From Candidatus Daviesbacteria bacterium GW2011_GWA1_41_61 (GTDB lineage: Bacteria > Patescibacteriota > Microgenomatia > Daviesbacterales > UBA10151): a stretch of DNA of 64,000 nucleotides. The notes beneath the pieces are model-generated. The model worked only from the letters and a program-made list of their open reading frames with translations, had not been told where the DNA came from and made no database searches. This document shows, one piece after another, positions 30,683 to 51,710 of the stretch (the stretch's first letter is position 1; every line of letters begins with the position of its first letter). Both the position numbers and the translations under genes were made by a program. The DNA is taken from the NCBI GenBank assembly GCA_000997385.1, contig LCBT01000003.1, positions 64,892 to 128,891 on the forward strand, written 5' to 3'.

Positions 30683-31147
30683 CTAGAGTTTAGAGACTAG
30701 GAAAATAATGACCGCTACAGTTACTATCTGAGTTAAAATTCCCCATTTGGGTCCGGTTCTTCCCTGCATCCGGTGTTGTATTTGATAAGCCCAATAAAAA
30801 GGAGGAATCTTCCGTTTTAAAAACCAATAAGGAGCTTCCAAGAAATCCCACATAATGGAAGCTAAGATACAGGCTGCAAAATATCTTGGTTCCACCCCTT
30901 GGCTAAATAAGGCAGTGGTTAGGGTAACCCCGACGATGACATCTAAAGAGCTTTCAATAAACAGTTTGGTTTTGGGTTTATCCCGCCATCCCCGGGCAAA
31001 ATCCCAGTGGGGAATAACATCTACCAGGGGATGAGAAACAGCTGCCAAGGTGACTCCCAGGAGAGGATTAGAGACAGAAGCAGCAACAACTCCTCCGATT
31101 AAAGCATGCGCAGTAGCAACCATATAGGTATAAGTGACGCCAACCAT
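30683..31147 (-). CDS. Hypothetical integral membrane protein
   Basis: Four to five TM helices. No motifs recognised. Confidence 0.4.
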   Translation of the reverse strand: MVGVTYTYMVATAHALIGGVVAASVSNPLLGVTLAAVSHPLVDVIPHWDFARGWRDKPKTKLFIESSLDVIVGVTLTTALFSQGVEPRYFAACILASIMWDFLEAPYWFLKRKIPPFYWAYQIQHRMQGRTGPKWGILTQIVTVAVIIFLVSKL

Positions 31148-31197
31148 CAGTATAACAATAAAAGGAAGATTTAGTCAAAATTTGGTATTATAAATAT

Positions 31198-39576: not shown

Positions 39577-40698
39577 ATGGTTGAGAGTTATACTGACACT
39601 CCAATTTCATTGTCTCCAGTCATAAAAGCAGTCTCTGGTGGTTGTAACTTACGCTGTAATTACTGCTTTTATTCTGGTAATCAGCCAGAAATAAAAAGGA
39701 TGAGTGTTGACACCCTAGAAGCTCTTACTAAACATTTATTAGAGTCTCCATCGAAACATTTTAATTTTATTTGGCATGGCGGTGAGCCAATGCTATTAGG
39801 AATAGAATTTTATGAGAAAGCGTTAGAAGCACAAACGAGGTACAAAAGATCAGATCAAGATATCCGTAATTCTCTCCAAACGAATGCTACTCTTATCAAT
39901 CAGGGATGGGTAGACTTTTTTAAAAGAAATAGTTTTGGTGTAGGAGTAAGTATTGATGGTCCTGCTGAGCTTCATGATTTAGTGAGGGTACAGACCGATG
40001 GAAGGGGGTCTTATGATCAAGTGGTATCAGGAATCAATCAATTGAAGGCAGCTAATATTTCCTTTGGTGGGATAGCGGTCGTAAATAGGATAACTGTCAA
40101 CCATCCAGAGACTATGTTTGCTTTTATCAAAGATGGAGGAATACCAATGGCTTTAAATCGGTGTAATGCTAACACTGATGATCCGGAAGAGGTTAGAAAA
40201 TTAGCGGTTGGTCCAGCTGAGTATAACGCATTTTTATTAAAGATATTTGATCTATGGATCAATGAAAATAATCCAGCGATCAAAATCCGTCCTCTTGATG
40301 AATTAGTTAGGGCAACCTTAGGCTATCATACAGAGAGTTGTAGCTTTTTAGGCCAGTGCGAAAGATATTTTACAGTTGATTTTAATGGCGATGTGTATCC
40401 TTGTGATGAGTTCCTTAATGATAGGTATCTATTGGGGAATATTAAAAGACAGGCAGTAAATGAGCTTTGGCAAGGTGGGGATTTTAGAAGATACTATTTA
40501 GGAAGGCGTGGTGTAATTATTAACTGTGAGGGGTGTGAGTGGATGGATGTGTGCAATGGCGGATGTATAAGAGATTGGGAAGGATCTAAAGGTATGTTTA
40601 ACCCGAAAGAAATTAGCTTTTGTGAAGCAAAAAGGTCGTTATTTCAAACTATAAAATTAAGATTGTCAGAGTTGGGATATACTAGAGGTATAATCTAA
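39577..40698 (+). CDS. Radical SAM/SPASM-domain enzyme (anSME-like peptide-modifying maturase), cassette 1
   Basis: CNLRCNYC radical SAM cluster motif, GGEP. C-terminal SPASM cysteines (CSFLGQC..CDEF...CEGCEWMDVCNGGC). Confidence 0.85.
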   Translation: MVESYTDTPISLSPVIKAVSGGCNLRCNYCFYSGNQPEIKRMSVDTLEALTKHLLESPSKHFNFIWHGGEPMLLGIEFYEKALEAQTRYKRSDQDIRNSLQTNATLINQGWVDFFKRNSFGVGVSIDGPAELHDLVRVQTDGRGSYDQVVSGINQLKAANISFGGIAVVNRITVNHPETMFAFIKDGGIPMALNRCNANTDDPEEVRKLAVGPAEYNAFLLKIFDLWINENNPAIKIRPLDELVRATLGYHTESCSFLGQCERYFTVDFNGDVYPCDEFLNDRYLLGNIKRQAVNELWQGGDFRRYYLGRRGVIINCEGCEWMDVCNGGCIRDWEGSKGMFNPKEISFCEAKRSLFQTIKLRLSELGYTRGII

Positions 40699-40723
40699 TT
40701 ATAAAAGAAAGAAGGTGAAAAAT

Positions 40724-40957
40724 ATGCTAAGAGAAGCAGAAACGGCAGCATCTACTGACGCAGAAACATTAGATCTAACAGCTGTTGTACCTGTTGAACC
40801 GGTAGAGCGAAGTGTCAGAGAACCAAACTTGGTCATTGAAGAGGTGCTAAAAGGATCTAAGAAGCTTATTACACTTTGGTCGGGAGATCATAGCGATCAT
40901 GTAGATGTTAACTTTCCTTATGGTGACTATGCTGATAGATGGAGTGATAAAGCTTAA
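40724..40957 (+). CDS. Small acidic precursor-like peptide (77 aa), cassette 1
   Basis: GAAGGTG ribosome-binding site. Helical acidic N-terminal region. C-terminal core WSGDHSDHVDVNFPYGDYADRWSDKA with repeated aromatic/His-x-Asp triplets. Confidence 0.5.
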   Translation: MLREAETAASTDAETLDLTAVVPVEPVERSVREPNLVIEEVLKGSKKLITLWSGDHSDHVDVNFPYGDYADRWSDKA

Positions 40958-41046
40958 AACTTTATCAATATTATATAATCAGTATTAAAGTATTTAGCAT
41001 CTTAGGGTATTATATATTTTCATAAAACGGAAGTTTATTTTGAGTA

Positions 41047-42033
41047 ATGACTATTAAATTTCAGATTTCTGAAACAGCTAATTTTTGGCATTTTGTGTCA
41101 AACTTAGTTAGTTGGCATGATAGTGTCAGGCTCTATTATAGAGATTATTGGTTAGATCAAACAGGTGATTTTACAGAAATAGAGGAAAAATGTTTAGAAA
41201 AGTTGAAAGACTTTTTCAAAAAGTATACATATGGGGAGAATTACTGGGGCAAAGTTTTTTTACTAGGAAATAATAATGTTTGGGAAAAAGCCGGGCAAAA
41301 ATTTACTGCATCTGAGATTGAATTATTAAAAGAGGCTTCGGAAGTTTTTTACCGTCGTTTTAGAAAAATTTGGGATATTGATCAGCATTTATTGAAAGTT
41401 TGGAAAATACGTTTAGAAAAGACTAGTAAAAGGTTTGTGACAGAGTCCCTTATTCAGGATTTGGATGTATTTTTTAATTACAAACAACCCCTAAAAAGCG
41501 TCACAGTTTTTCTTCTAATGTGTGAGAAAAGAAATGATCCGGCAGGGGGAGGAGCAAATTTAGGTAAAGGATATCTTACTTTGGAGGTCTCAAGAGCTGA
41601 TTATGATGCTATAAGGCCAGCCTGGCTACTATTTTGGCATGAACTGACACACAACCTCTGGCAGGAAGATAGCTCTACCTACCAACAATTAAGAAGAGAC
41701 TTCTCTGATCAAATGAAGAATGAAGGTTTAGACGGGAAAATTCTGCAAATACCTACTTCCAGGATTATTAATGAGGTAGTGGTTGATTCACTTTTCCCTA
41801 AGGGTTATCTTGCCAAGAAACATTTCGACTTTCCAGTTGAGTTAATTTTTAATCGTTTCGGGGAAGGTTCTAAAAAGCGGTTTAAGGTGGAGGATTGGCA
41901 TTACTATTTTGCCTATACTTTAAAGGATTTAGCTAAAGATTATATAGAAAATGGGAAGGCTATTGATATGGATTTTTTTAAAGAGATAAAAAAACAATAC
42001 ATAAGATTTTCTAAAGATTTCAGGAGAAGCTAA
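41047..42033 (+). CDS. HExxH-motif protein (putative Zn metallopeptidase), cassette 1
   Basis: WHELTHNLW. No other recognised domains. Confidence 0.45.
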   Translation: MTIKFQISETANFWHFVSNLVSWHDSVRLYYRDYWLDQTGDFTEIEEKCLEKLKDFFKKYTYGENYWGKVFLLGNNNVWEKAGQKFTASEIELLKEASEVFYRRFRKIWDIDQHLLKVWKIRLEKTSKRFVTESLIQDLDVFFNYKQPLKSVTVFLLMCEKRNDPAGGGANLGKGYLTLEVSRADYDAIRPAWLLFWHELTHNLWQEDSSTYQQLRRDFSDQMKNEGLDGKILQIPTSRIINEVVVDSLFPKGYLAKKHFDFPVELIFNRFGEGSKKRFKVEDWHYYFAYTLKDLAKDYIENGKAIDMDFFKEIKKQYIRFSKDFRRS

Positions 42034-43163: not shown

Positions 43164-43970
43164 GTGCAGAGAGAGTGTAATACACTTTTTAGCCAATTTA
43201 TGTTAACAGCTACTTTAGGAAGGTTAATTAAAGATCATAGATTAAGAAAAAGGCTTTCACAGCTGGAAATTTCTTTAAGGATAGGTTGGAGGGATACCAC
43301 CAGGTTATCTAAGATAGAGCAGGGAAGGGTGGGGAAACCTCTTAGGAAGACAGTAGATAAGATCATGGAGGCTCTAGATTTAAATAAGCAGGAAAGAGGA
43401 GAGTTTTTACTAGTTGGAGGATATCTACCCACAGATGAGGAAATTAAAAAGGTTATCAAACTGGTAAAAGAAAGAATAAACACTTGGCCTTACCCAGCCT
43501 ATTTGTTAGATTTCTCCTGGAGAGTTCTGTGTCTTAATCAACATACTATTGATATCTTTAAGTTACCTTCTGCTCTAAAGAGCATTTCTTTTAAAAAAGC
43601 TCCAAATCTACTGGAATTCCTTTTTTCTCCCAAGGAGGTTCTACCGGTTAAAATAGAAAAAGGTGATGATGACAAATCAGTCCAACCTTTCCCGATAGCA
43701 CAAGTTGCTCAATTTAAAGTAGAGCAAAATGGCAGGGATAATGAGAAGTGGTATAAAGATTTAATCAAAAAGTTGATGCAAAATGAGCAATTCCGTCAGG
43801 TTTGGCCCAAAGTAGATCCCAAACAGTATCACAAAAAGTTGTTAGATTATGAATATAAAGTAATTACTTGGCCAGACAAAAGTCACAAAACCTTTAGGTT
43901 TCATATTTTCACCTCCAGATTAATCCAAGACCAAAGGTTCCAGGTGGTATTATACCTCACAGCAGAGTAG
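43164..43970 (+). CDS. XRE-family HTH regulator with C-terminal domain
   Basis: HTH LSQLEISLRIGWRDTTRLSKIEQG. Its last about 29 codons (43884..43970) form the gene-tail repeat found at four other sites. Confidence 0.65.
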   Translation: MQRECNTLFSQFMLTATLGRLIKDHRLRKRLSQLEISLRIGWRDTTRLSKIEQGRVGKPLRKTVDKIMEALDLNKQERGEFLLVGGYLPTDEEIKKVIKLVKERINTWPYPAYLLDFSWRVLCLNQHTIDIFKLPSALKSISFKKAPNLLEFLFSPKEVLPVKIEKGDDDKSVQPFPIAQVAQFKVEQNGRDNEKWYKDLIKKLMQNEQFRQVWPKVDPKQYHKKLLDYEYKVITWPDKSHKTFRFHIFTSRLIQDQRFQVVLYLTAE

Positions 43971-44144
43971 AGTATTAAAATTTAACGTCAAATATTTGAT
44001 AGAAGAATCTTGCTAAATCATTCAAGAGAGATAAAAGGGGATAAAATTCCCATTAAAATCTTAACACTCTATCATATAGGGACTATAAACATTTCAAGTG
44101 CTTAATGTATGTCTGTATACCCAACTAACTCCAGTTTGCAACTT

Positions 44145-44654
44145 TTAGGTGGAAATGAGTTGAAAACTATCAGTTAAAAGTGTACTCATCTCTTTCTGGT
44201 AAAGGTAGATGTTTTCAAAGAAGTTTAAACAGGATTCTTTGAATTTAGGGAAAGTGTCATAGTATTGGTTGTAGGTAACTTTCTGATGAAACAGTCTCCA
44301 TAACCTCTCAATCAAGTTTAAATTGGGTGAATATGGTGGCAGGAATTTAGGGATTAACCTTGGATGGTATCTTAGATAGTTTTGGACCTGTCTTGAGTAG
44401 TAATACCTGGCATTGTCCCAAATCAGATAAATCCTGCCTGTTGGGTGCTTTTCTAATAGTTGGTCCAGCAGATTGATGGTGGAAGTTGAGTTAATCCTTA
44501 AATCTTCCCTGATGATTACATCATGGGTTTTAGCATTTAAGGCCCCATTTAAGTTTAACCTGTCCCTGCCTGTATTAGACTTAATTAGTTTATCAGTCCC
44601 CTTTAGTATCCAACCATACGAAGGTCTGGTATTATGCTGGGGATGAGTTTGCAT
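44145..44654 (-). CDS. IS630-family transposase DDE-domain ORF (+1 frame relative to orfA)
   Basis: LIWDNARYYYS, LPPYSPNLNLIERLW. 23 nt overlap with orfA. Confidence 0.7.
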   Translation of the reverse strand: MQTHPQHNTRPSYGWILKGTDKLIKSNTGRDRLNLNGALNAKTHDVIIREDLRINSTSTINLLDQLLEKHPTGRIYLIWDNARYYYSRQVQNYLRYHPRLIPKFLPPYSPNLNLIERLWRLFHQKVTYNQYYDTFPKFKESCLNFFENIYLYQKEMSTLLTDSFQLIST

Positions 44655-45174
44655 CCAGGAAGTAGATCTGGTCAGCTGCTTCTAACTGATTTTTAAGTTT
44701 TAAGTACTCATCTAAAAAGGCTCGCTGTTTGTCTAAATCAGCTTTGGCTGGTACAAGCTTGGGTTTCTTGTAGACAAAGCCTAACCTGTGGAGGAGTTTA
44801 GTCATACCAATAACTGAGTATTTAATGTGATATGTGGATTTAATATACCGGGCTACTTCTTTAGCTGTTAAGTAAATATGCTCACCTTCTGCTAAATGGT
44901 TTTTGAGTTCCAGCTCTTGGGTTTTGGTAAGTCTTGGATGACCACCAGTGTAGTGGAACTGCAATAATCCACTCAGTCCCTCTTGCTTAAAACTTTTAAC
45001 ATATCTCCTGATGGTTGTCTCGTCTAAAAGCAGTGCAGCAATTATCTGGGGATATGTGAAGCCTCTATGAACCATGAGTATGGCTTTGATTCTATCAGCC
45101 AACCTTTTGTCTCTTACCTGTTTATGTGCCTTTCTCAAAACCAGCACTTCTTCTTCAGTTAAAATTTCGGGCAT
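44632..45174 (-). CDS. IS630-family transposase N-terminal (HTH) ORF
   Basis: Helix-turn-helix region and HYTGGHPRL. Confidence 0.7.
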   Translation of the reverse strand: MPEILTEEEVLVLRKAHKQVRDKRLADRIKAILMVHRGFTYPQIIAALLLDETTIRRYVKSFKQEGLSGLLQFHYTGGHPRLTKTQELELKNHLAEGEHIYLTAKEVARYIKSTYHIKYSVIGMTKLLHRLGFVYKKPKLVPAKADLDKQRAFLDEYLKLKNQLEAADQIYFLDANSSPA

Positions 45175-45255
45175 TAACTATTATGGGATCACACTTTTAC
45201 CCTACTTGTCAAATTTTAGGTTGCAAACTCATTGAAGATTGGTATATGTACTCCT

Positions 45256-45528
45256 TTAGGTACATACAATGACACAATTGCAGTTACAATTAAAACAGCC
45301 AGCATCACAATCACAGCTGCCTGCATAATCTATACCTCTATCTGTTCTTCCCAGTGCCTGGACGAATGGTTGAGTAAAAATAGATTCAAATTCCATAGTT
45401 CGTCTCTGACTTTGCAATTGGGTTTGTTCCGCTAACAGTTGGTTAGCTGCAAATTCATATTTTGGTGTTAACTGCTCATTTTGCAATTGGGCTTGTTCCA
45501 AAGATTCGTTCTCGACTTCCCGCAACAT
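45256..45528 (-). CDS. Cys/Asp/Asn-rich precursor-like peptide (90 aa), cassette 2
   Basis: GGAAGGAGG ribosome-binding site 8 nt before the ATG. N-terminus MLREVE.. resembles cassette 1 peptide (MLREAE..). C-terminal core GSCDCDAGCFNCNCNCVIVCT. Confidence 0.6.
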   Translation of the reverse strand: MLREVENESLEQAQLQNEQLTPKYEFAANQLLAEQTQLQSQRRTMEFESIFTQPFVQALGRTDRGIDYAGSCDCDAGCFNCNCNCVIVCT

Positions 45529-45564
45529 TAAAATCACCTCCTTCCGATATTATTATCTTAGCAT

Positions 45565-46287
45565 TTAGTTAATTTGCTTTATAACTTCTAGAAAATCCTT
45601 GTTGTAGACATGCCTAAATTTTTTATAAAAGATTATATTATTACATCTATCACCCAGTGACGACAGAAAATATAAAAGTTGAAGTTTGCCATATTTTTTA
45701 ATTAAGTAACTTACTGCTCTCCAACTGTGCCAATAGCCCTGTATAGATGGTTTGGCTACATTCTTACTCCATTGTTTTGATGTTCCTAGCAAGAAAATCG
45801 TCCGGGGGTTAAAATTGATACTAAAGTTACTAGCTAAGTTTATCTGGCCAGCAACAAAACAGGCCAAACCCTCATCAAACCATTGCGGTCTATAACCTTT
45901 ATGTATTGCACTGGTAAATAAGTGGGCAATCTCATGGCAAAGGATCTTTTTAAACTCATTTTTATTATGATTACTCACTTTCTCAAATACTTCCGGGCTA
46001 AATATACAAATCTGGCTTTGGGTCGATGGGTCAGCACGACCTACCAGCCAGGGTGGAGTTTTATGGCCAGATAGATCATCCATTTCTTGGCGTGTATATA
46101 ATAAAACCAAATCGACTCCATCAATTTCCCTTTTGAAGAACTTCACATTTCTTCTGTAACATTGCTGCAACATTTTTTTTACTTCACCTATAAAATTGTC
46201 ATCAAATGAATAATAGATTGTACCTTTGGCGGTAGTACTTAAGCTGAAAAGCTCTCTTTTTTTGTTTTTAATCATTAATTGTCTCAT
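45565..46287 (-). CDS. HExxH-motif protein (putative Zn metallopeptidase), cassette 2
   Basis: CHEIAHLF. Lies between the radical SAM gene and the peptide. Confidence 0.5.
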   Translation of the reverse strand: MRQLMIKNKKRELFSLSTTAKGTIYYSFDDNFIGEVKKMLQQCYRRNVKFFKREIDGVDLVLLYTRQEMDDLSGHKTPPWLVGRADPSTQSQICIFSPEVFEKVSNHNKNEFKKILCHEIAHLFTSAIHKGYRPQWFDEGLACFVAGQINLASNFSINFNPRTIFLLGTSKQWSKNVAKPSIQGYWHSWRAVSYLIKKYGKLQLLYFLSSLGDRCNNIIFYKKFRHVYNKDFLEVIKQIN

Positions 46288-47647
46288 TAACTGGTTGAAT
46301 AAAGCCTAGTTTGAATAGTCTAAAGAAAAATTCATTCGGGGCTTCTGTCAAACTAAATTGGTCTTGTATTTCCTTAATTGTAAACGGTCTCTCCCAAAAT
46401 CTTACTTCTTTTAAAGCGATATAACCTAACTTGTCAAGAAACAGGGAAGCTCTAGGACCGTTAGAGACAATACCTCCAAAATCCTCTGACCTAAATTTTA
46501 TCTTCTTCCCCAACACAAGTTTTCTATCCAGAAGATCCATAGGAGAAAAAGTCTCAGACTGATTTTGTGGCTGATTATAGACACCCTCTGGGCTTGTTGC
46601 CAAAGGATCCATACCATCAATCCCGTTACAATATTTTGCATTCATACGGCAACCGGCTCTACAGCTAGGAAAATATTCGCATTCAGATAAACATCCTTTT
46701 GGAATACGGGAACCGTCTCTCCAATCCGTCATTCTCTTCCAGATATCTTCAAGAGTTTCATTAAATATATTTCCATAAACTTCATCGGCGACAGTACAAG
46801 GCCTAACATTTCCTTCAGCGGAAATCGCACAAGTTGCAACTCCAGCAGCACACTTTCTCTCAATAAATTTTCGATAATACCCCCAATTCCCAAGAGCACA
46901 TAAGGGATATGAGATTAAGCTGTCGACATGCATTCCCTCCTCCGCTTCTAGAAACAATAAATCGTCTAACATTTTCTTATAATCTTCCTTATTCAAATCA
47001 ATTTCATCAAAGTTGATACCACCCATACATGGAGAAACTTTAGTTGCCGAAAATGAAGAGACTCCCTTACTTTTTACTAACCTACCAGTATCTAGCACTT
47101 GATCCTTATTTAAAGCGGAGACTACCATATTTGCAGTGATATCTAAGCCTTCTCCTACACAAATATCAATTCCTCTAACGGTTTGTTTAAAAGATCCTTT
47201 TCTTTGTGTTATCGTATCATGTAAGGTGCTATTACTTGCATGCAGAGAGGCAAGTATTGAGTCTACCCCGGAAATTTTTAATTCTCTGGCTAATTCAGGA
47301 GTTATTAGAGTTAGATTACTATTTATTGAGCATGCAATATCGTATTGTTTAGCTAATTTTATTCCTTCTAATAATTTTCTGCTTTTAAGTAACGGCTCTC
47401 CTCCTGTGAAGGTAAGTGCTATAATTTGATGCTGAGCAAGATACCTGATGGTGGTTTCAAGTCCAGTCAGGGATAAGGAGGAATTAGAGTAATCCTTATT
47501 CAAGTCCCGAAATTTGTCCCCCCTCCAGTAGTTGTAGCAATGTACGCAATAATTGTTACACCTAGAGGTTAACTCAATCTGAGCGTCAAGTGGCCCGCTA
47601 AGAGTTTTATACACATCTAGCGAGGGAACTAGAGGATTTCTTTCCAT
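46268..47647 (-). CDS. Radical SAM/SPASM-domain enzyme, cassette 2
   Basis: CNNYCVHCYNYW radical SAM motif, SPASM cysteines (CAAGVATC...C..CEYFPSCRAGC). Start at the internal Met with an AGGAAAAG ribosome-binding site. Confidence 0.85.
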   Translation of the reverse strand: MERNPLVPSLDVYKTLSGPLDAQIELTSRCNNYCVHCYNYWRGDKFRDLNKDYSNSSLSLTGLETTIRYLAQHQIIALTFTGGEPLLKSRKLLEGIKLAKQYDIACSINSNLTLITPELARELKISGVDSILASLHASNSTLHDTITQRKGSFKQTVRGIDICVGEGLDITANMVVSALNKDQVLDTGRLVKSKGVSSFSATKVSPCMGGINFDEIDLNKEDYKKMLDDLLFLEAEEGMHVDSLISYPLCALGNWGYYRKFIERKCAAGVATCAISAEGNVRPCTVADEVYGNIFNETLEDIWKRMTDWRDGSRIPKGCLSECEYFPSCRAGCRMNAKYCNGIDGMDPLATSPEGVYNQPQNQSETFSPMDLLDRKLVLGKKIKFRSEDFGGIVSNGPRASLFLDKLGYIALKEVRFWERPFTIKEIQDQFSLTEAPNEFFFRLFKLGFIQPVNETIND

Positions 47648-47864
47648 AATCTTTTCCTGGGCTTCTACGCGAATACTATCATTAATAAATGGTACTGTCA
47701 AAAATTTTGGTTTAACACCAGCAGGGGACAATACCAGAAATTATCAGCAGCAATGAATGGTATTTGATAGTTGTATTTTGACAAACATGGAGATGTTATG
47801 TTATTAGTAAGGATGTAATTTAAGAAGGAAGAAAGAGTAGCTAATTTGATGTTAATTTAAAAAG

Positions 47865-49244
47865 ATGGGCATTGAAAACACTAAAGTAAATGTAGATAGC
47901 TTACCGAATGCCCCCAAACAGATATACAAAACTCTTTCCGCTCCAGTTACAGCTCAATGGGAATTAACAGATTGGTGTAACCAACGATGCTTCCATTGTT
48001 ATAATTATTGGCGAAATGATAATCCAGAAACTGTTGAGCCTTCCGATAGTGTGGGGCAGATTCATCATACAATAGCAAGGGAAATTGTGGCTAATCATGT
48101 TTTTAGCGTGACAATTACAGGTGGAGAACCACTACCTTTTATCAAAAAATATGCTGAGTCAATCGGATTACTCAGAGATGCAGACGTTGATTTAAAGGTT
48201 AATTCTAACTTAACTTTGTTTGACCGAGAGTATGGCCATATTCTTAAGGATTTGGGTATTACTTCGTTACTAACATCTGTAATATCTTATAACCCTAATA
48301 CTCACGATCGTTTATGCTGTAGTCCTGGAAGTCATAAAAAAATAAGCGATAATATCAGAAGAGCTTTGGATATGGGATTTAGAGTTAGCCCAAATATGGT
48401 TGTAAGTAAACTAAATTTAGGTGATATCGAGGGAACTGCAAAGTATGTAAAAAGCCTGGGACTAACTTCTTTCTTGGCAACCAAAGCGACTGCCCCTCCG
48501 AATTGTCCAGATTTTAGCCAATATTCATTATCACTAGAAGAATTAAAGATTATGTTTAATTTGTTGAAGAAAGCAGAAGCAGAGTATGGCGTATCTGTTG
48601 ATTCACTTGAGCCTTACCCTATGTGTCATTTTCAAGACCACGATCAATTAAAGGCCTTTGGGCAACGTGTTTGTGGGGCAGGTAAATCAATATGTACAAT
48701 TGGATTTGACGGAGCTGTAAGGCCTTGTTCTCACGCAGATCAAGTTAGTGGAATAATATCGGATCAAAACAGCTTTAAAGAGTTATGGTTGAAGCTACGG
48801 CCATGGCGTACTGATGAATATTTGCCTGAAGAATGTAGTAAATGTAGTATAAGAAATGTATGTTACGGTGGATGTAGAGTTGAAGCTTGCGTAGTTAATG
48901 GAGATTTAAAGTCTAGGAATCCCTATTGTGATCCAGAAAATATTCCAAATATTAACTCCTTGGAGCTAACATGGAAAAACGATGATGTTAAATTTAATCC
49001 GGGAAGTGCTTTCCAATTTAACCCACATTTAAAATATAGAGGGGAAGAGTTTGGGGGTATACTATTTTTATCTCCTAAAGCATGGGTGGGAGTTAATGAA
49101 TATATACTGACTTTCTACAAGAAAAGAAAAGACTCACCCTTTGTTGTTAAAGACTTATCTGATGATATTGGTGTTGAAAGAGGAAGTTTGGTTGAAACGA
49201 TGCATTTGTTATACAAAAAAAATATAATTGAAGAAAGGAGGTGA
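47865..49244 (+). CDS. Radical SAM/SPASM-domain enzyme, cassette 3 (paralogue of cassette 2 enzyme)
   Basis: CNQRCFHCYNYW motif, SPASM cysteines (CGAGKSIC...CSKCSIRNVCYGGC). Confidence 0.85.
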   Translation: MGIENTKVNVDSLPNAPKQIYKTLSAPVTAQWELTDWCNQRCFHCYNYWRNDNPETVEPSDSVGQIHHTIAREIVANHVFSVTITGGEPLPFIKKYAESIGLLRDADVDLKVNSNLTLFDREYGHILKDLGITSLLTSVISYNPNTHDRLCCSPGSHKKISDNIRRALDMGFRVSPNMVVSKLNLGDIEGTAKYVKSLGLTSFLATKATAPPNCPDFSQYSLSLEELKIMFNLLKKAEAEYGVSVDSLEPYPMCHFQDHDQLKAFGQRVCGAGKSICTIGFDGAVRPCSHADQVSGIISDQNSFKELWLKLRPWRTDEYLPEECSKCSIRNVCYGGCRVEACVVNGDLKSRNPYCDPENIPNINSLELTWKNDDVKFNPGSAFQFNPHLKYRGEEFGGILFLSPKAWVGVNEYILTFYKKRKDSPFVVKDLSDDIGVERGSLVETMHLLYKKNIIEERR

Positions 49245-49248
49245 TATT

Positions 49249-49464
49249 GTGAGCAAAGAAAACTCAGTTGGTTTATTAGATATACAAGTTGTTGCTGAGA
49301 GTGAGATGACTGCACCTAAGCAAGTGGATACCACTAAGGCTTATGGAATAGTTCCTATGTTTAATAATGTGGGTGGTGCGGTTGAAGGTGATATATTCCA
49401 GTATGATGATGGTGGTTGTTATGATGGCCCAGAATGCGATGAATGCGATCCTTCTCCGTTGTAA
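49249..49464 (+). CDS. Cys/Asp-rich precursor-like peptide (71 aa), cassette 3
   Basis: GTG start with an AGGAGG ribosome-binding site at a 7 nt spacer. C-terminal core DIFQYDDGGCYDGPECDECDPSPL. Confidence 0.55.
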   Translation: MSKENSVGLLDIQVVAESEMTAPKQVDTTKAYGIVPMFNNVGGAVEGDIFQYDDGGCYDGPECDECDPSPL

Positions 49465-49618
49465 AAGGATTATTTTGGTCTATAGATTTCATCTATGGGA
49501 ATCGAAGCTCCGGGGGTTTAAACTCTCGGTTGCTTTTTAAAAGATTTTATCTGTGATAGAACTAGACTTGAGTTTTTCAATAGGTTAATCTGAGTTTAGG
49601 AGCAAATACAACTAATTA

Positions 49619-50281
49619 ATGATTAATATCAAAGTTGCTTACAATAGGGGTCGTGATGTTCAAGTGTATCTGAATTATCTGTATCAATTTAAGTCATACA
49701 AACATGGTCGAAATAATATCAGAGAAGAATTATTAAACTCATACCCTGAAGAGTTTAGGATCGCCCTGAATAATGCCCCTAATAGGTTAGAGGCAGCCAG
49801 AGTTGCAAAAAACTATCTAAAAGATAGATACATAGGTAAAAGATCCTATTTCAGAAAAGTTGCTTTAATGTTAGAAGAGGCTTGGATCAAACAAAGAGCA
49901 GATATTGAAAGACAATTGGCCGATCTTTACGGTCAAAAAGTTCCTTTTCAAATGATATGGGTTTATTATACAACTACCCCAATTTGTCCATATAATTTTA
50001 GAAAAAGAGAAATTATTGTCTCTTATAAGCGTCCGATTGATGTTCAAATAAATATTTTGAAACACGAGCTCAATCATTTTATGTTTTATAATTATTTTCC
50101 AGAACTATTAGAAGAATTTGGTAAAGAAAAGTTTGAATCATTAAAAGAAGCATTAACAGTTCTAACCAATCCAGAGGAGAAAGGGTACCCCGCTCAACAA
50201 AAACTTCGTCAATGGTTAAAAAAACAGCAGGGTACAATCCCTGAGATTATTACACAGGATAAATGGAAGAAATATCTTTAA
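49619..50281 (+). CDS. HExxH-motif protein (putative Zn metallopeptidase), cassette 3
   Basis: KHELNHFMF. Confidence 0.45.
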   Translation: MINIKVAYNRGRDVQVYLNYLYQFKSYKHGRNNIREELLNSYPEEFRIALNNAPNRLEAARVAKNYLKDRYIGKRSYFRKVALMLEEAWIKQRADIERQLADLYGQKVPFQMIWVYYTTTPICPYNFRKREIIVSYKRPIDVQINILKHELNHFMFYNYFPELLEEFGKEKFESLKEALTVLTNPEEKGYPAQQKLRQWLKKQQGTIPEIITQDKWKKYL

Positions 50282-50442: not shown

Positions 50443-50760
50443 ATGACTCAAGTGCAAATTCAGGATCAAATAGACTCTATTAAAAATCAACTCATAGAAA
50501 AGTACAAACCACAGAAGATTTTTTTGTTTGGTTCCTCTGTAACCGGAAAGATGACCGAAGATTCTGATTTAGATTTTTTAATCATCAAAGATGATAAAAA
50601 AGATCCATACAACCGGATAGTAGAAGTTTACCATCTAATAGAAAAAGATATTGCTGCGGATTTCCTGGTCTACACACCGCAGGAATTTAGTGAAAGGTTA
50701 AAACTAGGTGATCCTTTTGTAACTTCAATACCGTCAGAGGGAAAAGTCCTTTATGGTTGA
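50443..50760 (+). CDS. Nucleotidyltransferase (MNT-type, Pol-beta superfamily)
   Basis: LFGSSVTG....DSDLDFLI motif. Confidence 0.7.
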   Translation: MTQVQIQDQIDSIKNQLIEKYKPQKIFLFGSSVTGKMTEDSDLDFLIIKDDKKDPYNRIVEVYHLIEKDIAADFLVYTPQEFSERLKLGDPFVTSIPSEGKVLYG

Positions 50761-50945
50761 AAATATGTACAGAACATGACTTGGAGTTTAATAAATTTAG
50801 TGAAGCTTCCAAACTTTTAAATCCATTTTACATTGTAACCCGCTATCCAGACTTTGTTATCTCAGTTAATAAATCTGACGCTGAAAACGCTCTCAAGATA
50901 GCAGAAGAAATTGCTGATCTAGTTAAATTGAAACTCTCTGCTTGA
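50757..50945 (+). CDS. HEPN-like C-terminal fragment, partner of the MNT gene
   Basis: Only 62 aa with a TRYPD-like motif and a TTG start. Probably degenerate. Confidence 0.35.
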   Translation: MKICTEHDLEFNKFSEASKLLNPFYIVTRYPDFVISVNKSDAENALKIAEEIADLVKLKLSA

Positions 50946-51062: not shown

Positions 51063-51710
51063 CTAGATATGGGATTTAACCAACTTGGTAAAGAATCGTT
51101 TTATTTCCTTTGGGTCGGCAGGTGTAGTCAAAGGAGCAGGTACTATATCAAAATTTGATAAATCTCCAAAATAGACTAATTGTTCTAAAAAGATTTTTTC
51201 ATCAAAAATACTGCCGTAAACACTTTTGGCTACCGAAATGATCTGTTTAAGATCCGTATAATCATGTTTTAAAATGGTGTATAGGTCAAAATAATCCCGG
51301 TATTCACCTCTTCTGCCAATGGTATATGCCTTCTGTACAGCAATTTCTTGTACAGGGAATAAAGATAAGCCATCTTCTAACTCCAGGATCTTAAAGTGTG
51401 GTTTAAAAGGGTAATAAAGAAAGGTAATTTTGATATTGTCCTTTGTAAAAAAGGTTAGCTCGTCGGGGGTATCAACAGCAATATTGTTAATTGGAAAACT
51501 TTGGGAAAGTTTCTCCAATAGTTTTTTGGGGATCTGTGAGGTGCTGAAAAAATCAAAATCAAAAGATTTACGGTGGACAAGTTGTAAGGCAAGTGCAGTC
51601 CCCCCACTCAGTACAAAACCTTTGGTTAGAGGAAGTAGTGTCTGTAACAACTCCCTCCTTTTATTATCTAATATATCGAGGTGTAGTTTTAAGGTATTTT
51701 TGTTCATCAA
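51063..51710 (-). CDS. AbiEii/DUF1814-like nucleotidyltransferase toxin-family protein
   Basis: GFVLSGGTALAL..HRKSFDFDF motif. Confidence 0.55.
   Translation of the reverse strand: MMNKNTLKLHLDILDNKRRELLQTLLPLTKGFVLSGGTALALQLVHRKSFDFDFFSTSQIPKKLLEKLSQSFPINNIAVDTPDELTFFTKDNIKITFLYYPFKPHFKILELEDGLSLFPVQEIAVQKAYTIGRRGEYRDYFDLYTILKHDYTDLKQIISVAKSVYGSIFDEKIFLEQLVYFGDLSNFDIVPAPLTTPADPKEIKRFFTKLVKSHI

Follow-up and report, generated by a model that had tools for sequence, protein, structure and literature searches.

Within a 64,000-nucleotide stretch of the genome of Candidatus Daviesbacteria bacterium GW2011_GWA1_41_61 (contig LCBT01000003.1, positions 64,892 to 128,891; "the window" below means this stretch at its full length), we describe a three-gene operon that encodes a radical S-adenosylmethionine (rSAM) enzyme, a zinc protease of small size and a precursor peptide of 90 residues whose tail is rich in Cys, Asp and Asn. 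We refer to it as cassette 2, as two further rSAM-peptide cassettes lie close by. The locus is very probably an operon for a RiPP, a peptide made ribosomally and modified post-translationally. Our fuller reading, to which we would assign a probability of roughly 40% when taken as a whole, is that this RiPP carries Cys thioethers with Asp and Asn as the preferred partners.

Organisation and conservation of the cassette

A preliminary description of this DNA, made from the sequence alone, had placed the enzyme first, the HExxH protein second and the peptide last, all on the minus strand, and all three open reading frames (ORFs) were found so in the window. The features of the locus are as follows.

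46268..47647, minus strand: radical SAM/SPASM peptide maturase; the ATG start gives 459 aa, and the coordinates include the stop (ORF, homologue N-termini, Pfam)
45565..46275, minus strand: HEIAH zinc metallopeptidase, 236 aa, putative leader peptidase (Pfam PF13485, NCBI match, orthologue alignment)
45256..45528, minus strand: precursor peptide gene, 90 aa plus stop (ORF, homologues P0122-P0124 and L001-L004, synonymous excess)
45537..45542, minus strand: Shine-Dalgarno sequence AGGAGG, 8 nt upstream of the peptide ATG at 45528 (sequence reading)
47648..47864, no strand: divergent intergenic region between cassettes 2 and 3 (position)
47701..47673, minus strand: promoter-like TTGACA-17-TAGTAT (consensus match only; such sites are fewer than in shuffled sequence)

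There is an 8-nt overlap between the protease start and the rSAM stop (ATGATTAA), and 36 nt separate the protease stop from the start of the peptide gene. A mechanical ORF call would start the enzyme at TTG 47731 (487 aa); we take it as 459 aa because the starts of its homologues, "ME(K/R)(D/N)P..", align with ATG 47647, and because the promoter-like site lies inside the TTG extension. A GTG start for the peptide at 45537 (93 aa) was likewise rejected, since homologues begin at the ATG and the Shine-Dalgarno sequence precedes it. The protease ORF has possible starts at 46287 and 46275, the second of which gives the 236-aa protein that is 100% identical to the NCBI hypothetical protein UU73_C0003G0132 of the same bacterium, so that the window belongs to a member of the Patescibacteria.

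Four related metagenomic contigs (L001-L004), whose enzymes are 76-81% identical to that of the window, all keep the order rSAM enzyme, Peptidase_MA_2 protein, peptide, with overlapping enzyme and protease genes. Contrary to the possibility, raised in the preliminary description, that the small ORF might be absent or frameshifted in related genomes, these four contigs all retain the peptide, the one exception among relatives being P0125, a truncated 52-aa variant on a 2-kb contig.

The precursor peptide

Two segments of the peptide carry most of its conservation.

45259..45321, minus strand: core peptide GSCDCDAGCFNCNCNCVIVCT, residues 70-90 (sequence reading; kept through synonymous codon changes)
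45325..45393, minus strand: conserved leader segment EFESIFTQPFVQALGRTDRGIDY, residues 46-68, putative recognition sequence (near-invariance among relatives)

The peptide had been described as 90 residues long, with a Gln/Glu-rich leader and a tail of seven Cys among Asp and Asn, and this proved correct in every detail. The Cys of the core are residues 72, 74, 78, 81, 83, 85 and 89 of 90, and their neighbourhoods (C-D, C-D, C-F-N, C-N and C-N) show the closeness of Cys to acceptor residues (Asp, Glu, Asn or Thr) by which ranthipeptides are recognised. Relatives' peptides keep the pattern FESIFxQPFVxALGxTDxGIDYxGSCDCDAG..CNCNC..CT, and the Gln/Glu-rich N-terminal part is variable among them, with deletions; a candidate peptide for leader recognition is FESIFTQPFVQALGRTDRGIDY.

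Over the last 46 codons, the window peptide and that of L001 differ at 13 codons synonymously and at 6 non-synonymously, and many of the silent changes fall within the Cys/Asp/Asn core, which is under purifying selection. Because relatives keep both the gene order and the core with many synonymous changes, the small ORF is a real gene. Cys density alone is rare rather than unique: the window has 418 ORFs of 30 aa or more in six frames, and two of them reach seven Cys in 20 residues. The second of these, a 36-aa ORF at 31068-31178 on the minus strand (..YGCYCACFNRRSCCCFCL), is unconserved, overlaps the ends of larger ORFs and probably arose by chance.

A search for homologues of the peptide shows the exact type to be rare, with five clusters among 5.8 billion proteins, P0125 included. 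Among NCBIfam models, the only match to the peptide is halo_CC_star (E=0.003, 17.7 bits against a cut-off of 55), which we treated as compositional and which lies below its cut-off; the SCIFF peptide model gave no match.

The maturase and its partner protease

The functional regions of the two enzymes are the following.

47537..47560, minus strand: CX3CX2C cluster motif CNNYCVHC (C30, C34, C37), followed by YNYW (sequence reading)
46628..46900, minus strand: SPASM region with seven invariant auxiliary-cluster Cys, C250, C266, C284, C319, C323, C329 and C333 (26-sequence alignment)
46292..46525, minus strand: C-terminal domain, residues about 375-452, winged-helix, resembling a RiPP recognition element (RRE-like), putatively leader-binding (AlphaFold2 secondary structure)
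45922..45936, minus strand: HEIAH zinc-binding motif (sequence reading; invariant in the orthologue alignment)

Pfam assigns the enzyme a Radical_SAM domain (E=6.8e-22) and a SPASM domain at residues 294-341 (E=6.6e-6, 26.7 bits against a cut-off of 21.5). In the alignment of 26 family enzymes, C30, C34, H36, C37, Y38 and N39 are invariant, and the protein shows the generic marks of an rSAM/SPASM RiPP maturase, namely the CX3CX2C motif, a SPASM domain of about seven Cys and a co-conserved adjacent precursor. A profile search against solved structures gave SkfB as the best match (106 bits), followed by PqqE (80) and SuiB (75.5), and Foldseek searches with the AlphaFold2 model (mean predicted local distance difference test, pLDDT, of 83 overall) placed SuiB, SkfB and anSME on top, with E of about 1e-14 to 1e-16. 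These solved relatives all modify peptides or proteins, and the chemistry is not transferable from any of them.

The C-terminal part of the enzyme is modelled well (residues 377-452 at pLDDT 81-90): four strands are followed by three helices and by a last short strand, and this predicted layout is that of PqqD-like RiPP recognition elements. It contains an R-x-E-x-F-G-G motif (R386, E388, F390, G391) that is invariant or nearly so among the 26 sequences, and a profile search of the Protein Data Bank with this domain returned only weak winged-helix matches (SelB, E=0.004). We call the domain RRE-like and consider it a candidate for leader binding.

The HEIAH protein matches Pfam Peptidase_MA_2 (PF13485) with 35.3 bits, against a gathering threshold of 32.4. 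Across 12 orthologues of its type, H114, E115, H118, P130, W132, E135, G136 and Y181 are invariant, and they comprise the zinc-binding and catalytic residues of a gluzincin (HExxH, Glu and Tyr). Searched as a profile, these proteins match M1 aminopeptidases around the active site (E=5.8e-4). An AlphaFold2 model built from a five-sequence alignment was poor (pLDDT 54), and the weak Foldseek matches that it gave, all of them M1 aminopeptidases (E of at least 1.8e-3, TM score of about 0.3), are consistent with this assignment rather than proof of it. The protein is probably cytoplasmic, as its N-terminus lacks hydrophobicity, and we regard it as a putative leader peptidase.

The wider family

A word-indexed search at E<=1e-20 yielded 428 relatives of the enzyme, and phmmer, run exhaustively against 1.84 billion cluster representatives, yielded 443 at E<=1e-30, mostly of 430-460 aa and aligned almost end to end; the family amounts to about 440 clusters at 50% identity. 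Its named matches are almost all Patescibacteria (Levybacteria, WWE3, Pacebacteria, Yonathbacteria, Niyogibacteria and Vampirococcus), together with one Magnetomorum. Gene neighbourhoods were sampled in about 27 systems, drawn from species-representative genomes, metagenomes and contig look-ups; these scans sample the family rather than enumerate it. In nearly all sampled loci with enough flanking DNA (all but a few of the 27 or so systems), including loci whose enzymes are only 30-45% identical to that of the window, the enzyme is adjoined by a small ORF whose tail is rich in Cys, and in about 19 of the 27 it is adjoined by an HExxH protein. The original reading of the locus as a radical-SAM peptide-maturation cassette is upheld by these associations.

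Gene order varies across the sample. The order enzyme, protease, peptide is found in the clade of the window and in loci L005 and L165, and elsewhere the order is enzyme, peptide, protease or peptide, protease, enzyme. The HExxH proteins fall into two types that are unrelated by BLAST: type A, which is Peptidase_MA_2-like and includes that of cassette 2, and type B, represented by the HELNH protein of the neighbouring cassette.

47865-50281, plus strand: cassette 3, paralogous to and divergent from cassette 2 (rSAM/SPASM enzyme, 78-aa peptide, 220-aa HELNH protein)

The enzymes of cassettes 3 and 2 share 34% identity (E=6e-76). The 78-aa peptide of cassette 3 ends in GGCYDGPECDECDPSPL, and its 220-aa HELNH protein has no Pfam match; no similarity was found between the HExxH proteins of the two cassettes. 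Systems of types A and B tend to co-locate, as seen in cassettes 2 and 3 of the window, in L008 and in L003. In L008 (1709-6711), two complete sets stand tail to tail. In L003 (4231-6170), a type-B HELNH gene, 84% identical to that of the window, directly follows a peptide like that of cassette 2, with no second rSAM enzyme. This co-location may mean that the two systems cooperate, or it may be the remnant of one of them.

We used 26 precursors to study Cys spacing and a de-duplicated set of 21 to study composition. The 26 peptides contain 2 to 22 Cys, clustered towards the C-terminus and followed by 0 to 11 residues after the last one, and the commonest intervals are CxC (48), CxxC (35) and CxxxC (24). 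Many leaders share a G-F-(E/V)-(S/T)-hydrophobic-hydrophobic motif, by hand count usually some 15-20 residues ahead of the first Cys; that of the window peptide reads FESIF, 21 residues before C72, and G-F-x-S/T-hydrophobic motifs like the one in its conserved leader segment recur in distant family leaders. A motif at such a fixed distance would be the look expected of a leader strand docking on a recognition domain.

In the set of 21, Asp makes up 22.8% of the non-Cys core residues and 6.0% of the leader (Fisher p=3.5e-15), and Asn 10.6% and 6.7%, respectively (p=0.03). Asp is the commonest residue directly after Cys (42 of 129), and most of the Cys lie no more than two residues from an Asp or Asn in 18 of the 21 peptides. 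Aromatic residues are few and unconserved in the cores. The lone exception to Cys as a shared feature of the sampled cores, that of the Magnetomorum locus L171, has a single Cys.

Two further observations illustrate how diverse the cores can be. The precursors at L005 (7074-7358) and L165 (6180-6377) have a different core type on the same scaffold of enzyme and type-A protease, and their enzymes, which are Levybacteria-like, are the nearest to the clade of the window (45-50% identical). At the extreme of core diversity, a 79-aa peptide with 22 Cys in CxCxC and CDxC repeats is encoded directly upstream of a family rSAM enzyme in L099 (3212-3451).

Proposed pathway and the chemistry of the product

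We propose that the precursor consists of three parts: a variable Gln/Glu-rich extension, a recognition segment (FESIFxQPFVxALGxTDxGIDY) and the 21-residue core. The leader would dock on the winged-helix, RRE-like domain fused to the C-terminus of the enzyme, which would then cleave S-adenosylmethionine reductively, so that the 5'-deoxyadenosyl radical could abstract hydrogen atoms from the core. Cys sulfurs would be joined to nearby carbons to give several intramolecular thioether bridges, with Asp and Asn side chains favoured as in ranthipeptides, and the translationally coupled HEIAH gluzincin would remove the leader last. What the sequences show is the gene content, its conservation, the domains and the catalytic motifs; from these we infer leader docking, chemistry and cleavage.

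Thioether formation is the established outcome for rSAM/SPASM enzymes that act on Cys-rich cores. Since Cys is the sole feature common to all sampled cores but that of L171, it is the likely reacting residue, and Cys-derived thioether cross-links in the product are, to judge from the sequences, likely. Adjacent Cys-Asp links are chemically plausible, because the ranthipeptide synthase PapB accepts Cys-Xn-Asp with n=0-6 (PMC9413430), and the recurrence of Asp beside Cys across the family speaks for links to side chains (non-alpha) of the kind that PapB makes. The regiochemistry of the links is not, as such, readable from sequence. The preliminary description had suggested non-alpha thioethers to Asp and Asn, and support for this is indirect: the Asp enrichment and the PapB precedent fit it, whereas the enzyme matches no ranthipeptide-synthase model and three cores have no Asp or Asn near most of their Cys.

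These two points belong to a larger set that weighs against our preferred reading. To start with, the enzyme passes no NCBIfam cut-off. Its best scores are for NirJ2 (128 bits against 500), AhbD (104 against 500) and GeoRSP (95 against 400), and those for MftC (84.5 against 265), WgkB (83 against 650) and PqqE (51 against 381) are sub-cut-off as well; none of the best-matching types, NirJ2, AhbD, GeoRSP and MftC, forms thioethers. The models for PapB (NF047865, cut-off 340) and for the SCIFF maturase (TIGR03974, cut-off 425) are absent from the best 25 NCBIfam matches, the lowest of which scores 51 bits. Among solved structures, those closest to the enzyme are SkfB, which forms sactionines, PqqE and SuiB. 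No Pfam family, PqqD included, matches the C-terminal domain at E up to 10, whether it is searched as 90 isolated residues or in four further enzymes of the family. The three exceptional cores are those of L005 and L165, with PPPPC(V/Y)G repeats, and that of L006, CYCHCACACHVTG; since they are mostly without Asp or Asn near Cys, these residues are not an obligatory partner family-wide. The operon contains no exporter or immunity gene, and a richness in Cys and Asp would also suit simple metal binding.

The same operon logic would apply if the bridges were sactionines, in which Cys sulfur is joined to backbone alpha-carbons, and we hold this to be unlikely, albeit a reading to be taken seriously. 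The best solved-structure match of the enzyme is itself a sactisynthase (SkfB, 106 bits; Foldseek E of about 1e-15), StsB shows that an MftC-like rSAM enzyme can be a sactisynthase that installs thioethers on a CxCxC core (PMC10288494), and the cores of L005, L165 and L006, with Cys but no Asp or Asn near most of them, would suit alpha-carbon acceptors that do not depend on a side chain. However, the sactisynthase models AlbA (66 bits against 850) and StsB (52 against 625) score far under their cut-offs, Cys are found throughout the core as far as the last residue but one, which departs from the customary layout of a Cys half and an acceptor half, and the strong enrichment in Asp would be left without explanation.

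Just as unlikely, in our estimation, is a different modification altogether, such as C-C or C-O cross-links, epimerisation or an anSME-like oxidation of Cys, with a core that acts through free thiols or disulfides, for example as a metal-binding peptide. The nearest profile matches (NirJ2, AhbD, MftC, PqqE, SuiB and anSME) form no thioethers, Cys plus Asp is a typical composition for metal ligands, and the lack of an exporter would agree with such a role; the near-universal presence of Cys in the sampled cores nevertheless points to Cys as the reacting residue, and aromatic residues, the usual partners in C-C and C-O links, are few and unconserved there. A precursor of an intracellular redox cofactor, comparable to PqqA or MftA, is highly improbable: an rSAM enzyme, RRE, peptidase and small peptide without a transporter do resemble PQQ and mycofactocin loci, and MftC and PqqE are among the nearer models, but such precursors have an invariant reacting motif, whereas the cores here are hypervariable (2 to 22 Cys, with variable length, spacing and C-termini) and two different systems stand side by side in one genome, and we rejected this reading. 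Least credible of all, a small ORF that exists by chance beside rSAM and HExxH genes acting on something else could appeal to the equal Cys density of the ORF at 31068-31178, but it is already contradicted by the conservation data: position and sequence are kept in relatives, with a synonymous excess, and comparable Cys-tailed ORFs stand next to distant family enzymes. The ORF also has a strong Shine-Dalgarno sequence.

Relation to known systems

With Cys thioethers and preferred Asp/Asn partners as the reading that we retain, the cassette can be set beside systems that are already known. It resembles ranthipeptides (PapB/freyrasin; CteB and Tte1186, which act on SCIFF peptides; NxxcB) in its rSAM/SPASM enzyme, its leader and its Cys-rich C-terminal core, and in having Cys close to Asp, Asn or Glu, given that PapB links Cys to Asp and Glu (PMC9413430). 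It differs from them in an enzyme that falls outside the ranthisynthase clade (by the absence, among its best 25 matches, of PapB and SCIFF-maturase models), in an RRE-like domain that is C-terminal where theirs is N-terminal, in a spacing that is mostly CxC or CxxC and not CX3D, in a dedicated HExxH peptidase and in named matches that are almost all Patescibacteria. StsB and StsA share with it the full-length similarity of StsB to MftC-type enzymes and the CxCxC core of StsA, which brings thioether chemistry into this sequence space (PMC10288494); in StsA, however, the acceptors are Gly residues of a GxGxG tract that is absent from the peptide described here, and the StsB model reaches 52 of the 625 bits required.

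The likeness to SkfB, a peptide thioether-forming rSAM enzyme, lies in its leading the profile matches to solved structures and ranking at the top in Foldseek, but identity is about 23% over about 290 residues and SkfB makes a single Cys-Met link. SkfB also has a Twitch domain rather than a full SPASM domain. The systems GeoRSP, SynChlorMet (ScmE/F) and ACGX, defined bioinformatically in NCBIfam/TIGRFAMs, likewise pair an rSAM/SPASM enzyme with a small peptide, and their models score 72-95 bits, far below their 400-bit cut-offs; to our knowledge, an RRE-like domain at the C-terminus and an HExxH partner have been described for none of them. As for the protease, the leader peptidases of the M1 family (AplP-like) share its gluzincin HExxH...E site, and the HEIAH profile matches M1 active sites. 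AplP is the leader peptidase of class III lanthipeptides; the protein here differs in being a bare catalytic domain of only about 236 aa whose gene belongs to the operon and is coupled in translation to that of the maturase.

In working terms we class the cassette as a thioether-type rSAM RiPP that stands outside the ranthipeptide, SCIFF, sactipeptide, mycofactocin and PQQ families, judged by the enzymes or peptides that define these at present. Its distinctive traits are the C-terminal RRE-like domain, the dedicated minimal gluzincin, the Asp-rich CxC/CxxC cores and the prevalence of Patescibacteria among its named members.

Genomic surroundings

Other features of the window lie on the far side of the peptide gene from cassette 3.

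39577-42033, plus strand: cassette 1, with an anSME/DynA/DarW-like rSAM/SPASM enzyme (sulfatase_rSAM 316 bits against a cut-off of 349; DynA 238 bits)
43164-43970, plus strand: MmyB-like regulator, HTH_31 plus MLTR_LBD (near the cassettes)
44116-45246: IS630-like element (27-nt imperfect terminal inverted repeats, 44116-44142 and 45220-45246)

Cassette 1 encodes an 80-aa peptide that ends in ..LWSGDHSDHVDVNFPYGDYADRWSDKA, rich in aromatic residues and without Cys, and a 328-aa HELTH protein, and looks like a cassette of the cyclophane or daropeptide type. The transposase of the IS630-like element is split into two overlapping ORFs, a helix-turn-helix part (45174-44632) and a DDE_3 part (44654-44145). 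Because this element ends 10 nt downstream of the peptide stop, it may have displaced a native terminator, or a gene that followed in the operon. The MmyB-like gene is a possible regulator of the pathway; a similar gene stands upstream of the cassette in L001 (1306-2130).

Directly past cassette 3 come a pair of nucleotidyltransferase/HEPN-like genes (50443-50945) and, at 51063-51710, a gene for a toxin of the AbiEii type; the family locus L167 also has AbiEii, MazE and Fic genes on its flanks. Accessory regions rich in mobile elements seem to be where the cassettes reside.

Significance

Families that pair an rSAM enzyme with a Cys-rich peptide and have yet to be characterised are not rare, and nothing in the cassette demonstrates new chemistry so far; what we present is a solid and testable lead. 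Should the chemistry turn out to be ordinary sactionine or ranthionine formation, the family would be a useful but incremental extension of known classes. A bolder view, which we regard as quite unlikely, is that of a Patescibacteria-centred RiPP class missed by cluster-mining tools, in which an SkfB/MftC-like enzyme with a C-terminal recognition domain would stitch Cys-X0-1-Asp/Asn into a run of very small rings, giving a rigid, acidic, possibly metal-binding product for dealings between episymbiont and host. We know of no natural RiPP for which a run of very small adjacent-residue thioether rings has been reported.

With genomes of about 1 Mb, Patescibacteria (the candidate phyla radiation) are generally described as having few or no biosynthetic gene clusters, and one survey reports zero such clusters in its Patescibacteria genomes (PMC11613949). 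Here, one Daviesbacteria genome holds three rSAM-peptide cassettes within 11 kb, and the cassette 2 family, with its roughly 440 clusters, is unnamed by curated models; full-text searches of open-access PubMed Central and bioRxiv found no published description of it. If its product were characterised, it would establish a new RiPP family, possibly with a new cross-link pattern, made by an enzyme of unusual domain order with its recognition domain at the C-terminus, and it would offer a first handle on the specialised peptides of these uncultured episymbionts.

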